Positions 3,006-43,616 of a DNA stretch of 64,000 bases are shown here, piece after piece. The notes below the pieces were generated by a model. It was not told the DNA's origin. It did not search any database and was given only the letters and a program-made list of their open reading frames with translations. Source of the stretch: Minisyncoccia bacterium (GTDB taxonomy: Bacteria > Patescibacteriota > Minisyncoccia > Phycocordibacterales > Zambryskibacteraceae); assembly GCA_041742965.1 (NCBI GenBank), contig JBGTNQ010000004.1, forward strand, positions 716 to 64,715. The letters are read 5' to 3'. Position 1 is the stretch's first letter; the number at the start of each line of letters is the position of its first letter. The translations under genes were made by a program, and so were the position numbers.

Positions 3006-3079
3006 CCGCCCTTAGCTCAGTTGGTTAGAGCACAGAGCTTATACCTCTGGGGTCCCAGGTTCAAATCCTGGAGGGCGGA
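3006..3079 (+). tRNA. tRNA-Ile with anticodon UAU (reads AUA)
   Basis: Cloverleaf: acceptor ccgccct/agggcgg, D-arm gctc-agttggtta-gagc, anticodon stem cagag/ctctg with loop CTTATAC, T-arm ccagg/TTCAAAT/cctgg, discriminator A. CCA not encoded. Confidence 0.75.
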
Positions 3080-3204
3080 CTACTGTAATGCCCTAGCGCA
3101 TCCTTTTGCTCAAGCAAAAGGGAGCAGGGATTTGAAGCCTTTCTTCAGATTTTTTAGAGTAAGAGCGAATAAAAAATCGAAAAAGGGAACTGAGTCTGTA
3201 AGAC

Positions 3205-6790: not shown

Positions 6791-7193
6791 GGGGGTGAAT
6801 TGCTTAGACAAAGAAGTCCCCTTGAAATACGCGAGAGAGAGCTGTGGTGACTCTTAAATCCGCCACAAATGACTAAATGCAAACAGCATCGTCGCACGAG
6901 CAAAGTCGGTAGTTTCTCCATATTTTGGAGCTAAGGATTTCGCTTTCGCTTACGCTTCGGCCTAAGTGACATCAACCCTTGTGAAGTCTGTTAGCGAGGT
7001 GTTGGTGTAATATTTTCGGACTCTAGGAAATACCCGCTCCAGTATTTTCTGAACTGTAGGAGCTCGATAATGTGGGGTTTTGTTTACTTTCAACCCACAT
7101 TATTTAAATCGCTTCGGCGAATGAGGTAAACTACCTCTCGTAGAAGTATTTCAAGGGTTTCTTTGCACGGGAGCTCAATACTCCCCACCTCCA
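6791..7193 (+). ncRNA. ssrA: tmRNA (SsrA), one-piece
   Basis: Immediately downstream of smpB. 5' GGGGGUG pairs with 3' CACCUCC, giving a 7-bp acceptor stem with a G3:U70 wobble (alanine identity), then discriminator A. T-arm-like gggag/CUCAAUA/ctccc at 7169-7185. Ala-rich tag-like frame ending AKDFAFAYASA then stop at 6963-6965, with a candidate GCA resume codon at 6879. Terminator follows. Confidence 0.65.
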
Positions 7194-7275
7194 CAAAAAT
7201 AAGGAACGAAGTGACTATATTTTTGTAGGACTCCGCTTCGCAGCGCGAAGCGGAGTAACACAATTTTAAAAAAAC

Positions 7276-38945: not shown

Positions 38946-40430
38946 CTAACTAACAGACTTTGTGTTAATTTTTTGATACAAGAAAAATAGAAGACAACTG
39001 AGGTACAGAAACACCAATAATCCGACGGGAACGGCGCCGAAAGACAGAGCGCTTAGTGGTAAATTGGCGAAAAAAGTAGATACAAAAACAATATAAGCGA
39101 GGAACAAATATGATATGAATCCCGGAATTATAGCTAGAGCTCCAGAGATTAAACTTAAAATTCCCGTGACGAACCCCAGAAACATAACTAGAGGAACGAT
39201 GGGCAAAACAATTAAATTTACAATAAACCCCGATATTGAAACTGTTCCTATAGCGTAAAGCAAGAGTGGTAAAACAAAAAGCTGGGTAGACAAGGTGGCA
39301 GAAGCAATATCTCGCAGACCAAACTTCTCTGGTATCAGAGAAAACCTCTTTTCAAAAATGGGAGCTATCCAAATAATAGCGACAGTGGCTAGGAAAGAAA
39401 GTTGGAAACCTAAATCAAAAGCCAGCACAAAAGGGTTCCATAAAACCATCACAAACAGAGCAATCAAAAGTGAGCGAGATACAGCATATGTTCTGTGAGT
39501 AAAACGCGCCACAAGAACCAATAGGGCCATTAGAGATGCTCTCACCACAGAAGGTCCCGCACCAACCATAATTGCAAACAACACTATCCCCAAAGCACTA
39601 AAAACAAGGGCTCTTTTACGAGACAAAAAAGAAAGTGTCTTCATCACCGCTTCTGCTACGAGGGTGATGTTGTAACCAGAAAGAACGATGATATGAATAA
39701 TGCCCACAATCCTGAAAGCATCTAAAAGGTCGTCCCCCAGAGATTCTTCACTACCCAAGAGAATGCCAGCGAGTAAGGATGATTCTGGATCTGGTATTGC
39801 CCTTTCTATCGCCCCAATGAAAACATTTTTGCCAGTGAAAAGCGCCCTGCGTAAAGAAAAAGCGGATTGGCCAGCCTTGTCAGTAGTAGCGAAAGATAGA
39901 ATAAAATGTACACCCTCTTTCCTCAAATATTTTTCATAATCAAAAACTCTGCCACCCTCTGTCTCAAATGGTTCTGGGCGATTGAGTGTTCCGCGAACAA
40001 TAAGCTTGTCACCATAGAAAAACTCTGGAAACATATCCGCCCTCACAAGCATTCTTTCACCGGAATTTGTCTCCACTAAATATTCTCTATAAGACGCCCT
40101 CTCCCTGGGCTCTTTGACAACTTTGCCAACAACAGAGATCTTTTCACCAGAAAGTTCAACCAAAATTTGGTTGATTGGTTTATCTACCGATATGAAACGC
40201 AATACACCAAACCCATAACAAAGTAAAAAAATAGATGCTAAAAAAAATATTTCTCGAAAATATTTATCAGGAATAGAGCGCCAAGAATACAATAGTGTCA
40301 GAACCCCGAGGAAGACTGCGAACACTCCGAAGGGTATTGAAGCAAAGCCAAACGAGGCACACCAAACGCCGACACAAAATCCGATAACAAAAGAAAATAT
40401 CCAAAATCTCTTTAATGGATTTTCTTCCAT
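38946..40430 (-). CDS. ComEC/Rec2-like DNA-uptake channel membrane domain (no MBL domain)
   Basis: 494 aa. N-terminal DUF4131-like region plus a polytopic Competence-domain-like core. Confidence 0.55.
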   Translation of the reverse strand: MEENPLKRFWIFSFVIGFCVGVWCASFGFASIPFGVFAVFLGVLTLLYSWRSIPDKYFREIFFLASIFLLCYGFGVLRFISVDKPINQILVELSGEKISVVGKVVKEPRERASYREYLVETNSGERMLVRADMFPEFFYGDKLIVRGTLNRPEPFETEGGRVFDYEKYLRKEGVHFILSFATTDKAGQSAFSLRRALFTGKNVFIGAIERAIPDPESSLLAGILLGSEESLGDDLLDAFRIVGIIHIIVLSGYNITLVAEAVMKTLSFLSRKRALVFSALGIVLFAIMVGAGPSVVRASLMALLVLVARFTHRTYAVSRSLLIALFVMVLWNPFVLAFDLGFQLSFLATVAIIWIAPIFEKRFSLIPEKFGLRDIASATLSTQLFVLPLLLYAIGTVSISGFIVNLIVLPIVPLVMFLGFVTGILSLISGALAIIPGFISYLFLAYIVFVSTFFANLPLSALSFGAVPVGLLVFLYLSCLLFFLYQKINTKSVS

Positions 40431-41164
40431 ATAGAAATAAGTTGCTTCTCTTCTTCAGGAGAAAAAGATTTTTTAAACTTAGCTCCGGAAACACCTTTGA
40501 CTCTTTTTTCGCATTCCGCCCAAGTTGCGTGGGTCTTGGCTACTCCTTTAACGAAGCTTACATAGGAATATGCTTTGGAAGAGCTCTTAACTTTCGACTT
40601 ACGGCTTATAGCTTTTGTACTAGAAGATACAGAGAGACTAACTTTATAATCCTTTAATGGGCCGGAAAAAAGCTTTGGAGTTTCGCCATCAGCGAAAGCG
40701 GTGGCTATTTCATCACAGCGCTCGTTGGCTGGAATCCCAGAATGGCCTTTGAGCAAATGCCAGTCTATTTTTAGACCGTCACTTACTTTTAGAAATTTTT
40801 CCCACAGATCTTGATTGAGTACTGGCTGTTTTGTTTTTGTCTTCCAATTATTTTTCTGCCAGCCAGTGACCCACTCTTTGGCACCCTTTAGTACATAGGA
40901 GGAGTCGGTGTTGATAACAATTTTCAATTTTCTATTTTCAATTTTCAAAGTTGCCCGCAGGGCTTCTATTACTGCGGCGAGTTCCATTCGGTTGTTTGTC
41001 GTATTTGATTCTCTTCCCCCTAACTCTATTACTTCTCCTTTCGTCTTTCGTCTTTCGTCTTTCAAAATCGTAGTTTTTTCATCAGAAAAAACTACGATTG
41101 CCCCCCACCCCCCTCTCCCCGGATTCCCCCGTGAAGCTCCGTCAGTAAAAATAGTTATATTCAT
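40412..41164 (-). CDS. rnhA: Ribonuclease HI with C-terminal hybrid-binding (Cauli_VI-like) domain
   Basis: MNITIFTDGASRGNPG ... NNRMEL ... TDSSYV ... KGHSG. C-terminal YSYVSFVKGVAKTHATWAECEKRVKGVSGAKFKKSFSPEEEKQ. Start moved to ATG 41164. Internal tandem ctttcgt repeats at 41036-41064. Confidence 0.7.
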   Translation of the reverse strand: MNITIFTDGASRGNPGRGGWGAIVVFSDEKTTILKDERRKTKGEVIELGGRESNTTNNRMELAAVIEALRATLKIENRKLKIVINTDSSYVLKGAKEWVTGWQKNNWKTKTKQPVLNQDLWEKFLKVSDGLKIDWHLLKGHSGIPANERCDEIATAFADGETPKLFSGPLKDYKVSLSVSSSTKAISRKSKVKSSSKAYSYVSFVKGVAKTHATWAECEKRVKGVSGAKFKKSFSPEEEKQLISIWKKIH

Positions 41165-41180
41165 AATGCAAATATTATAA

Positions 41181-41213
41181 ACGAAAACCGCCCCAACATC
41201 ACTGTCGGGGCGG
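41181..41213 (-). terminator. Rho-independent terminator after the cassette E ORF
   Basis: ccgcccc-12 nt-ggggcgg, with T-run on the minus strand. Confidence 0.5.
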
Positions 41214-41265
41214 GGACCTAGGCCCAAAGAATCCAAGTCGGACCCCAGAGACTTAGGGTTAAAGT

Positions 41266-41619
41266 TTACCTTGCGAGAAGTGCGGGGGAGCCCAGGCTGC
41301 AACGGGCACCGAGCCAGCTCCAACGCACGAGGATATCACCATCATGGGCCGTCCAGGAAAGTACCGGGACGTAGTAGATACCGTGGAAGTCCTGAACGCT
41401 TCGCCACAGAACAGGATATACCTTCCTCAGTTCCTCCGGATAGGTACTCGGATGGTTAAACCATCCTTCGACCTGCTCGCTCACAAGCGAGAGAGCCCGA
41501 TCGATGAAGCCCGTTTCCCTCAGATGCGCGCAGAGGTCGAAACCTATGATGTCATCAGTGCCCTGATTCTTGTGACTGTAGAGCTCGTAGCTTACCGCCC
41601 GGCTTTCGATTTTCAACAT
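41266..41619 (-). CDS. Hypothetical protein, GC-rich cassette E
   Basis: 117 aa from MLKIESRAV. SD GGAG 6 nt before ATG. GC about 52%. No family recognised. The longer tracked ORF would begin inside the structured leader. Confidence 0.4.
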   Translation of the reverse strand: MLKIESRAVSYELYSHKNQGTDDIIGFDLCAHLRETGFIDRALSLVSEQVEGWFNHPSTYPEELRKVYPVLWRSVQDFHGIYYVPVLSWTAHDGDILVRWSWLGARCSLGSPALLAR

Positions 41620-41785
41620 AGTGTTCTCCTTGGGCTTCGTTGCCCGTAGAAATTGTCCTCTCACCCGAGGTGGGGAAGACTTTGGTAAGTCATAGCCAGG
41701 AGACACCGTCCACCAACTGTCGGACAGAATCTTTTGGCTATGACTACCTTTTCGCAAGTAATGTTGCAACGTACTATCTGTACCT

Positions 41786-41815
41786 ATTATACCATACTTC
41801 ATACTAAAAAGTCAA
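41786..41815 (-). promoter_or_regulatory. Strong sigma70-like promoter for cassette E. -35 TTGACT, 18-nt spacer, -10 TATAAT.
   Basis: Plus-strand agtcaa at 41810-41815 and attata at 41786-41791. About 160-nt leader containing an 11-bp inverted repeat (41686-41696 and 41735-41744). Confidence 0.5.
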
Positions 41816-41837
41816 GTATTTTATTGCTTTTTATTCA

Positions 41838-41864
41838 GAAAATGGCCCTAACAGGCCATTTTAT
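41838..41864. terminator. Intrinsic terminator after recJ
   Basis: aatggcc-ctaaca-ggccatt, flanked by A and T runs. Confidence 0.45.
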
Positions 41865-41894
41865 TCCTCATTCCTTATTCCCCCTTCCTTCCCT

Positions 41895-43616
41895 TTAGAC
41901 TATATCCACAATCCTCAAGCGTAGTTCTGGATAAGACCGGAATGTGGACTTTTCAAGAGTTGCTAATACATTCACCTTTTTGCCATTTTCTGGAACAGTA
42001 GAATATTTTTCTGGTTTAGTGAAAAAAGATATAGCTTTCAACGGTTTTCCTTTTCTGTCAAAAGAGATCTCCATATGATTCTTCTCCTTACCAAATTGTT
42101 TTACCTCTTTTATCTCTGCATTCGTAATACTAAAAATGGGTTTCGGATTCCCAATACCAAATGGAGCCAAGCGCTCAATGTGTCTATACATATCCCAATC
42201 AATATCATTAACAGAAACTTCGCCATCAACAAACACAGGCTCAAGAGCCGAAGCTTCTGGCAGAGAAGCAAAGGCTTCGTTTAAAACAGCTTCAAGTGTG
42301 TGTATTTTTTCACTAGAGACTTCGAAACCTCCGGCCATTTTGTGCCCACCAAACTGCACGAATGCCTCTTTAACCGTCTCCATAAGTAAAACCATATCCG
42401 TCAAACCTTCGGACCGACAAGAACCCTTGAGCAGAGAATCGCCGTTTCTTCCCCAGAGAAAAATCGGATGAGGAAAATCGTCCAAAACACTGTTGGCGGC
42501 GAGCCCTAGAAGAGAGGGCTTCCATTCTGGATTACCAAGGACCAAAACTTTTGGCAATTCGTCTGAGAGTTCTCTTTCCCGAATATGTTTTTTTATTTCT
42601 TTAACCAGAGAAGCCACCACGCCCTTTCTCTCGTCATTTATTTTATCCAAATGCTCACTTGCCACACCCGCTTCTACCAAATCACTAGTCTTTAAGAGTC
42701 TAAAAGCGTCGTCGGGTTTGCCCATACGCGAAGCGGCGTTTATGCGGGGGGCTAAAGAGAAACCAATATCGTCTTCTGTGATATATCTCTGGTCAACACC
42801 AAGTTTTTTCCAAATCTGCTGAAGTCCAGGACGAGGAGATTTGCGAAGGACTCTGAGCCCATAGTGAGCCAGAGCTCGATTTTCTCCGACAAGTGGCACC
42901 ATATCCGAAAGAGTGGCCATACCCACTAAGTCTAGTAGCCACTTTTCATGCCCTTCTTTCAGGTCAAAACGGTTTTTCTCCAAAATACCTTGAATCAATT
43001 TGAAAGCAACACCAGAACCACAGAGAATTTTTTCTGGGTAGGTGCAATCTTTTTGCTTTGGATTAACGATTGCGTACGCGGGAGGTAAAACTTCTCCTGG
43101 TTCATGATGATCTGTGACAATAACATCAATACCAAGTTCTTGAGCCCTCTTTACTTGCTCAATGTCAGTGATACCGCAATCAATAGTTATTAGAAGTTCA
43201 ATGCCATTTTCTTTAAATGTCTCTACTGCCGAAAGATGGAGACCATACCCTTCATCATGCCTATGAGGAATATAGTTGTCTGCATTTTTGAAACCGATTT
43301 TTTCAAAAAAATCTCGGAGCATTACTCCCCCAGGAATGCCATCTGCATCATAGTCACTGTATATGAGAATCTTTTGATCTTTTTCTATGGCCTCAAGAAT
43401 ACGAGAAACAGCCCGCTCCATCCCCTTTAGTAAAAATGGGTTGTGGAGATCTAATTCATAATCTGGGTTTAAGAACTTTTCCGCCAAAGTAGGCGTGTTG
43501 TGTCCACGATAATACAGAAGTTTTCTCAACAGAGGGTGGTATGAGGAGAGGGTGTCGTCAATTTCTTTTGGAATTGGGGGTTGGGCCTGGTATTCTTTCC
43601 TCGACATAAAAAGCAT
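41895..43616 (-). CDS. recJ: Single-stranded-DNA-specific exonuclease RecJ
   Basis: DHH motifs: DYDADGI, VTDHHEP. DHHA1 domain. 573 aa. Confidence 0.85.
   Translation of the reverse strand: MLFMSRKEYQAQPPIPKEIDDTLSSYHPLLRKLLYYRGHNTPTLAEKFLNPDYELDLHNPFLLKGMERAVSRILEAIEKDQKILIYSDYDADGIPGGVMLRDFFEKIGFKNADNYIPHRHDEGYGLHLSAVETFKENGIELLITIDCGITDIEQVKRAQELGIDVIVTDHHEPGEVLPPAYAIVNPKQKDCTYPEKILCGSGVAFKLIQGILEKNRFDLKEGHEKWLLDLVGMATLSDMVPLVGENRALAHYGLRVLRKSPRPGLQQIWKKLGVDQRYITEDDIGFSLAPRINAASRMGKPDDAFRLLKTSDLVEAGVASEHLDKINDERKGVVASLVKEIKKHIRERELSDELPKVLVLGNPEWKPSLLGLAANSVLDDFPHPIFLWGRNGDSLLKGSCRSEGLTDMVLLMETVKEAFVQFGGHKMAGGFEVSSEKIHTLEAVLNEAFASLPEASALEPVFVDGEVSVNDIDWDMYRHIERLAPFGIGNPKPIFSITNAEIKEVKQFGKEKNHMEISFDRKGKPLKAISFFTKPEKYSTVPENGKKVNVLATLEKSTFRSYPELRLRIVDIV

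Follow-up and report, generated by a model that had tools for sequence, protein, structure and literature searches.

Cassette E, which lies between recJ and rnhA in the window (the whole 64-kb stretch of DNA that was analysed), is probably a complete and independently transcribed gene for a 117-aa binding protein. The protein belongs to a Patescibacteria family diversified by diversity-generating retroelements (DGRs), and the gene is present here as a solo copy that is most likely frozen. It is a DGR-type variable protein of Patescibacteria, ordinary in kind, from a family with unusually clean and compact features and possibly an uncommon architecture that acts in trans.

A transcription unit inserted between recJ and rnhA

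All genes at the junction are read on the minus strand, from recJ (41895-43616, with DHH, DHHA1 and RecJ_OB domains), which ends at 41895, through the cassette to the ATG of rnhA at 41164 (RNase_H, E = 1e-39). The upstream edge of the insert is marked by the terminator hairpin of recJ, AAAATGGCC-6-GGCCATTTT (41839..41862), an inverted repeat of 9 nt with 100% complementarity. The cassette has its own sigma-70 promoter, TTGACT-18-TATAAT with a TG extension (41786..41815), which matches 11 of 12 consensus positions and confirms the near-consensus promoter claimed in an earlier note on this DNA. With a start inferred from the -10 box, a structured 5' UTR (41620..41779) runs for ~160 nt to the ATG at 41619. 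The Shine-Dalgarno (SD) sequence AAGGAG (41626..41631) stands six nt upstream of this ATG, and its counterparts in other leaders of the family are AAGGAGAG or GGGAG motifs. The coding sequence, 117 codons and a stop (41266..41619), encodes the domain only of this variable-protein family, without N-terminal extension. It is followed by a 52-nt 3' UTR (41214..41265) with CUUGG/CUUUGG/CCUARG-type repeats (two CTTGG/CTTTG motifs for 0.25 expected, plus variants) and by an intrinsic terminator (41181..41213) made of an 11-bp GC-rich stem with a 4-nt loop (hairpin 41213..41188) and a T run. The strong SD and the GC terminator next to rnhA that the earlier note had described are thus both in place. 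The T run is 17 nt from the rnhA start, and this spacing holds a TATAAT box (41174..41179). Compared with its context in L040 and L075, the box matches in position the -10 box of the template-repeat RNA found in homologous loci (see below), of which it may be a remnant; it may also, or instead, be the rnhA promoter.

The public gene call at this site (P0001) is a 178-aa hypothetical protein without family. The open frame extends 5' of the 117-aa ORF to an ATG at 41802. Codon-position GC (GC1/2/3) is 0.585/0.424/0.653 in the 117-aa part and 0.44/0.49/0.46 in the 61 upstream codons of the same frame. P0001 is probably over-extended at its N-terminus, since its ATG sits in the promoter spacer and many relatives are short forms that start just ahead of the conserved domain. 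The cassette was said to be GC-rich, at about 52%. The first part is correct, as its 300-nt GC maxima (55-57%) are the highest of the 64-kb window, but the figure is not, as 41166-41864 has 49.9% GC; the predicted transcript has 53.8% and the whole window 40.5%.

The same elements were found at the other loci of the family. Of 34 loci, 31 have at the corresponding site upstream of the gene a promoter of the form TTGAC[ACGT]-N15-19-T[AG]NNNT, usually with the TG extension. Hairpins were seen in the 5' UTRs, 70 CTTGG/CTTTG motifs against 6.0 expected were counted in the 3' UTRs of 23 loci, and a GC-rich terminator hairpin closes the 3' UTR in every locus. All homologues are also markedly more GC-rich than their hosts (55-66% versus 40-50%), with a GC3 of 0.72-0.83 in the four loci measured. 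Since these four elements, promoter, hairpin leader, CUUGG-rich 3' UTR and terminator, are found again from locus to locus, the window copy is, by sequence comparison, a conserved transcription unit, and the self-contained module is a trait of the family. The proposal that the cassette is an autonomous promoter-leader-ORF-terminator unit is therefore upheld: it is set between two genes that are directly adjacent in 13 relatives, and the same module, which the earlier note had suggested looking for in other genomes, was found again in ~30 homologous loci.

The synteny of a HIT-family gene, recJ, rnhA and comEC is kept in ~26 related genomes. The gap between recJ and rnhA measures 9-50 bp in the 13 relatives mentioned above, and in 11 others it is occupied by unrelated inserts (a kinase-like gene, a Nudix gene, a toxin-antitoxin-like pair in L028, a two-component system and more). 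No homologue of the cassette was detected by blastn, tblastn or nhmmer in 30 recJ-syntenic loci. As recJ and rnhA are in relatives either tightly spaced or separated by unrelated inserts, none of them similar to the cassette, we infer that the cassette was inserted into a conserved junction that often accepts foreign DNA. Neither blastn against phages and plasmids nor a viral contig scan gave any similarity to it. An IS200-like element had been considered in view of the size (~700 bp), the hairpin and a weak Y1_Tnp neighbour in L035, and was rejected since the cassette has no Y1 transposase similarity and no terminal repeats. A 19-nt direct repeat on either side of the cassette (41112-41130 and 41866-41884, 74%) was also rejected as a target-site duplication, one copy being the coding sequence of the conserved GNPG motif of rnhA.

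The leader RNA

The minimum free energy of the leader is -66.2 kcal/mol, compared with -41.1 ± 4.2 kcal/mol for shuffled sequences (z = -5.99), and none of 200 shuffles folded as well. Four hairpins are predicted (41769-41752, 41748-41684, 41680-41655 and 41652-41625). The long one, GGUAGUCAUAGCC / GGCUAUGACUUACC (41684..41748), encloses an inner stem-loop and contains a perfect 11-nt inverted repeat within a stem of 13-14 bp (41748-41736 / 41697-41684); an inverted repeat as long as 11 nt was found in 0 of 500 shuffles. In the predicted fold the UUUCU of hairpin 41652-41625 pairs with AGGAG of the SD, and part of the start codon is also buried by pairing with the 5' end.

The leader of L032, the closest relative, is homologous to that of the window, and 9 of the 30 consensus pairs are compensatory, both sides having changed and still being paired. 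Among them are pairs of the outer stem and of the helix joining the U-rich stretch to the SD, and the long hairpin is kept through C-G to G-C and other double changes. Another and common leader class (14 sequences) forms a three-tier stem-loop, the apical stem of which covaries through GC/AU/CG exchanges. The structured leader proposed earlier is thus well supported, both by folding and by covariation, the two checks that had been suggested. The Rfam search suggested along with them matched no curated RNA family: Rfam 15 gave no match at E <= 1 over 40000-43000, chance-level matches only at E <= 10 over 41150-41880, and tmRNA and tRNAs only over the whole window. Leaders across the family fall into at least two unrelated-looking classes, and L054 and L058 have an identical domain and template with unrelated leaders. 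Since the SD is partly paired in the predicted fold, the leader probably plays a role in mRNA stability or translation.

The protein family

Searches of Pfam, PHROGs, PADLOC, NCBIfam and PDB sequences with the 117-aa protein gave no match, and a word-indexed protein search (shared 5-mers) returned only the gene itself. With an exhaustive HMMER (phmmer) search of 1.84 billion representatives, 104 relatives were recovered at E <= 1e-3 and 39 at E <= 1e-10, the best one with E = 1.5e-24 and 50% identity over the full length. All 104 are apparently from Patescibacteria, and the named members are Patescibacteria/Parcubacteria hypothetical proteins. The family alignment covers the full length, with conserved Trp, Pro, Tyr and Leu columns. 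A word-indexed search can mislabel such a gene an ORFan. The earlier description of the protein as an ORFan of unknown family has to be abandoned, as it has these 104 relatives and its family is a target of DGRs. Nor is the cassette alone in its structure, which is kept in the leader of L032; the earlier note had left room for there being neither homologs nor conserved structure anywhere.

The AlphaFold model, obtained from an alignment of 25 sequences, has a pLDDT of 91.9 and a pTM of 0.83, and weakly resembles C-type lectin domains, including that of TvpA. The C-type lectin domain is the usual scaffold of DGR target proteins.

Template repeats in homologous loci

Six-frame translations of the homologous loci were searched with the family profile. 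In 14 distinct loci a second and partial copy of the gene (profile positions 76-115) was found on the same strand, 280-400 nt past the stop. This copy corresponds to the last ~120 nt of the gene and is located at the end of a highly conserved non-coding stretch. It has neither start codon nor SD, and its reading frame stays open across the terminator. When the copies were compared with the ends of their own genes, 307 mismatches were counted, of which 233 are at adenines of the copy (the template repeat, TR) and 19 at adenines of the gene (the variable repeat, VR); adenine makes up 24% of TR bases. All 17 mismatches in L059 and 18 of 20 in L039 are at TR adenines, and the non-adenine mismatches are mostly at the ragged ends of the alignments. 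The TR reads VNWNWLENRWNGNNPALLA, in longer form ...VAYLYWNGDRVIVNWNWLENRWNGNNPALLA, and its Asn (AAC) codons coincide with the highest-entropy columns of the family alignment, with ~10 hypervariable positions mapping to these codons between invariant Trp/Leu/Pro scaffold residues.

Such adenine-specific differences between TR and VR are characteristic of error-prone reverse transcription with subsequent VR replacement. Judging from these comparisons, the family is diversified by DGRs, the downstream copies being template repeats and the gene ends variable repeats, the relationship that defines DGRs (PMC3240598, PMC5758913).

The template is the 3'-terminal part of a ~400-nt structured unit that has its own -10 box/promoter and terminator. 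In the 250-nt 5' domain of this template RNA, compensatory changes are seen in 24 of the 58 consensus pairs, and Rfam gave no match. Pfam annotations and a scan for the YxDD motif revealed no reverse transcriptase (RT) in the surrounding 4-10 kb of any of the ~30 family loci; the YxDD ORFs that were candidates near homologues proved to be IleRS, GyrB, PheS and DnaB. Templates are also lost or decayed in some relatives. L034 is without a TR though its syntenic relatives have one, L051 has kept the template RNA with most of the repeat gone, and in L073 the gene is fused to the tail of the template.

The window copy

The window protein is 38-50% identical to the TR-bearing members, and its full-length homology to them, together with a C-terminal VR in an invariant scaffold, fits the DGR variable-protein family. 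From the column entropies of the family alignment, the region equivalent to the VR covers codons 76-116 (41272..41394). Entropy is above 3 bits at positions 88, 90, 99, 101, 105, 106 and 108-110 and 2.92 bits at 111, and below 0.8 bits at the scaffold residues L87, W89, W100, L103, P112, L114 and L115, which alternate with the hypervariable positions. Adenine amounts to 13% in this region versus 25% in codons 1-75, the mutable positions have NNC or NNT codons, and there is an insertion of two residues relative to the known TRs. The region is bounded on its 3' side by the GC-rich 18-nt sequence CCCCGCACTTCTCGCAAG (41270..41287), similar to an IMH (initiation of mutagenic homing) element. Its first 17 nt (CCCCGCACTTCTCGCAA) are identical in the gene and in the TR of L069; the final G is found only in the L069 gene, the TR having an A. 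In other loci CCnGCCCTCCTCGCAA, which is similar in sequence to the window boundary, is common to gene and TR. The sequence at 41287-41270 therefore resembles the IMH-type sequence shared by TR and VR and is a putative counterpart of that site. The hairpin at 41213-41188 lies ~55 nt past the VR, has a GUGA loop and is followed by the T run; it looks like a plain terminator.

A complete DGR is absent from the window locus, with neither TR nor RT in 64 kb. Sensitive blastn of 41181-41470 against the 64-kb window returned only the query itself. No TR was present in the six-frame translation of the window, where the gene, at E = 1.5e-41, was the sole match of the family profile, and an nhmmer search with the TR-RNA alignment detected no TR-RNA-like sequence in the 64-kb window. 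In the six frames of these 64 kb, part of a 135-kb contig, there is no ORF > 150 aa with Y[AVMCILT]DD; the same result was obtained for ~4 kb past the right window edge, and the short Logan contigs reaching beyond the window had no RT or TR. At this locus rnhA begins where the TR RNA begins in other genomes.

The window copy looks functional as a gene, since the domain is full length, the VR is A-poor with NNC/NNT codons at mutable positions, and 17 of the 18 boundary nt agree with the sequence that gene and TR have in common in L069. In the family, a DGR would copy the TR with errors at adenines and replace the VR of the genes, and the mutable AAC codons would yield ~10 variable positions on a fixed Trp/Leu/Pro scaffold. 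The unit inserted at the recJ-rnhA junction would now be present as a solo copy. A solo and frozen target is the most likely state because, in this family, each template directly follows the gene to which it belongs, even if the VR might still be rewritten by a remote TR and RT encoded somewhere else in the genome.

Alternative explanations

One possible, if doubtful, reading is that the window gene is an active remote target, diversified in trans by a TR and an RT lying outside the 64 kb. The ORF is intact with a confident AlphaFold model, the adenine-poor VR has the expected NNC/NNT codons, the 3' boundary is preserved as in the TR-bearing locus L069, and its GC content exceeds that of the host (+0.17) by as much as is seen for TR-bearing loci. 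An enzyme acting in trans moreover seems to be the rule, as no RT stands beside any locus of the family, and remote targets are known for other DGRs (PMC5758913). Against this, the TR is within 400 nt of its own gene in 14 of 14 TR-bearing loci, so that TRs look local and dedicated, the two-residue insertion in the VR would require a matching TR of its own, and the TR has been lost or has decayed in L034, L051 and L073. The view of the earlier note, in which the leader is the essential feature of the cassette and works as a riboswitch, a thermometer or a protein-binding switch, appears unlikely. The strength of the fold, the SD inside a predicted helix with the start codon paired to the 5' end, the nine double changes in L032 and the covarying hairpin of the other leader class would all agree with a switch. 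There is however no Rfam match even at E <= 10, and no alternative structure or terminator/antiterminator arrangement was seen, nor anything that indicates a ligand. Leaders of at least two unrelated-looking classes, which differ between L054 and L058 in front of the same domain and TR, are more in keeping with a hairpin of general stabilising or translational function than with a conserved pocket for a ligand.

The idea that the cassette is an ordinary small gene, recently transferred (for instance from a phage or plasmid, as an immunity protein or one member of a toxin-antitoxin pair) and unrelated to retroelements, is highly improbable. Its composition is foreign to the host and the insertion site holds unrelated inserts in relatives, including the toxin-antitoxin-like pair of L028. 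But phage DNA, plasmid DNA and viral contigs have no similarity to it, PHROGs, PADLOC and NCBIfam gave no match, no partner gene accompanies it, and all the relatives that could be traced sit among Patescibacteria housekeeping genes, many with a TR. That the product would be a structured non-coding RNA, a GC-rich transcript of 600 nt with a spurious ORF, is hardly tenable, even though no other segment of the AT-rich window has so high a GC content, the full-length transcript has a fold z of -3.0, its 5' end can pair with its 3' end and the word-indexed search had returned nothing but the gene. The antisense strand folds even better (z = -4.7), so that composition accounts for most of this fold score, and nothing in Rfam matches. 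A structured RNA as product is excluded by the clear codon periodicity (GC3 of 0.65 here and 0.72-0.83 in homologues), the 104 protein-level relatives with conserved Trp/Pro/Tyr columns and the confident AlphaFold model. We thus favor the solo and most likely frozen gene of a DGR-diversified family.

Significance

DGRs are more enriched in Patescibacteria than in any other group of bacteria. To our knowledge, their DGR target proteins are almost entirely uncharacterised. This analysis gives a biological context to a gene listed as a 178-aa hypothetical protein, and explains the odd composition of a GC-rich and adenine-poor gene in an AT-rich genome. A compact and well-modelled family of 117 aa with conserved expression signals would suit work on structure and ligands. 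Surveys centred on the RT, as the family also suggests, miss target/template modules located far from the enzyme, and the family shows that these modules decay into solo genes like the window copy.

We tentatively propose that the family may have a distinct DGR architecture, in which compact target and template modules are scattered among housekeeping genes and the RT acts in trans from elsewhere. The module would consist of a promoter, a hairpin leader, a minimal lectin-like gene, a 3' UTR with CUUGG repeats and a terminator, then a ~400-nt template RNA with its conserved 250-nt structured 5' domain. If this is true, a solo copy is a remote target or else a frozen receptor, and diversification or control involves the conserved untranslated elements.

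Comparison with known systems

A DGR clade restricted to Patescibacteria was described, and its targets, in which no domain is recognised, were suspected of being novel variants of C-lectin (Roux et al. 2021, PMC8144416), and remote targets are missed by RT-centred surveys (PMC8144416). Similar to the targets of this clade 2 of Patescibacteria (CPR) DGRs (PMC8144416, PMC5758913), the proteins described here come from the same host group, are small, have no known domain and are encoded on the chromosome among housekeeping genes. The CPR surveys deal with an RT that has TR and VR nearby, whereas no RT is located within 4-10 kb of the ~30 loci studied here, and, unlike in clade 2, a structured RNA of ~400 nt, equipped with a promoter and a terminator of its own, carries the TR at its 3' end. 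Remote DGR targets have been documented in Treponema and Trichodesmium (PMC5758913, PMC8867640). Like them, the window gene has a VR away from any retroelement core and has kept the putative 3' recognition sequence; what defines a remote target, however, is a TR that matches it from another place in its genome, and the window gene was compared with 64 kb only. In phage DGRs a GC-rich hairpin/cruciform with a 4-nt GRNA loop follows the VR by 4-34 bp (PMC3240598), unlike the hairpin found here ~55 nt away, with its GUGA loop.

As in Mtd of the Bordetella phage, TvpA of Treponema denticola and TaqVP of Thermus, the VR makes up the last ~40 residues up to the stop, invariant aromatic or hydrophobic scaffold residues alternate with AAC-templated hypervariable positions, and the differences between TR and VR, here in the homologues, are adenine-specific. 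A GC-rich conserved sequence ends the VR and is followed by a GC hairpin. The predicted fold bears a weak resemblance to C-type lectin domains, TvpA included. The family differs from them in having no detectable sequence similarity to them and no Pfam family and in being much smaller, a single bare domain of 117 aa; the window copy in addition has no signal peptide, lipobox or phage-tail context, and no TR or RT within 64 kb. In the paradigm of Bordetella, the structured RNA comes after the template, with an RT in the immediate neighbourhood. In this family the structured domain precedes the template and no RT is nearby, so that this may be an architecture of its own.

Template Repeats and Their RNA-Like Unit

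In 12 loci carrying homologues of the family in other genomes, the template repeat (TR) was located at the 3' end of an RNA-like unit of ~380-440 nt. The unit spans positions 4600-5045 of L032, 4593-4990 of L036, 2030-2425 of L039, and 1368-1765 of L040; the remaining eight loci have the same arrangement. It harbors its own -10 box (TAAAAT/TAGAAT), placed 7-8 nt 5' of GGTAGTAGG; its terminator, CTCTTCCG...CGGGAGAGTTTT, is conserved. The 5' domain of ~250 nt contains 58 consensus pairs, 24 of them with compensatory changes, and two alike hairpins with a GAUYAMGGYU loop. No match to the unit was found in Rfam.

Start of the 117-aa ORF and Its Leader

The frame of the 117-aa ORF, the family member of the window, remains open for 61 codons further 5' (window 41620-41802), as far as an ATG located in the promoter spacer; the 178-aa public call P0001 starts there. 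This extension did not show any codon periodicity, and P0001 is probably over-extended. In its 5' part (window 41748-41758), the leader reads CUUGCGAAAAG, a sequence complementary at 10 of 11 positions to CUUCUCGCAAG (41270-41280), which comprises the 3' boundary of the variable repeat (VR) and the stop codon of the ORF. The counterpart in L032 is an 8-nt match, CUACUUGC with GCAAGUAG, shifted along with that locus's own stop-codon context. The complementarity could reflect a long-range 5'-3' pairing, or it could be due to chance.

The recJ-rnhA Junction

The recJ-syntenic loci of related genomes (L002-L031) were compared with window 41164-41895. The recJ-rnhA gap measures 9-50 bp in 13 of these genomes, and in 11 others the two genes are separated by unrelated inserts, 0.3-2.9 kb long, with kinase-like, Nudix, ORF6N-like, toxin-antitoxin-like, and two-component genes among them. 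The junction seems to serve as a recurrent landing site. On the rnhA side, the end of a TATAAT box lies 10 nt 5' of the rnhA ATG (window 41164-41179), with no SD between the two. As two terminators separate rnhA from recJ, rnhA may be transcribed here as a leaderless mRNA started from the TATAAT box. In the rnhA product (window 40412-41164), the RNase H1 hybrid-binding domain (Cauli_VI, E = 3e-5) is matched over a short stretch at the C-terminal end and not at the N-terminus; the final rnhA codons overlap the comEC start.

The window also carries a tmRNA gene (6791-7196) and a tRNA-Ile with the anticodon TAT (3006-3080), a tRNA that is uncommon in bacteria.

Decay and Possible Exchange of Modules

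Three loci of the family show decay or rearrangement. The template RNA is kept at L051 (2054-2300) with most of the repeat gone; at L073 (217-330) the tail of a TR directly follows the stop of the gene, which looks like VR/TR recombination; and L046 (205-1722) carries a tandem pair of family genes without template. Contigs L054 (690-1590) and L058 (9984-10884) are 100% identical from the first position of the conserved domain up to and including the template RNA, whereas upstream of that domain their promoters, leaders, and N-terminal extensions are all unrelated. Either the module was swapped, or the assembly joined paralogues into a chimera.

Since no reverse transcriptase (RT) gene lies within 4-10 kb of the target/template modules in any family locus (L032-L075), the enzyme seems to act in trans, encoded elsewhere. 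With so distant an enzyme, these modules would escape RT-centred surveys of diversity-generating retroelements.
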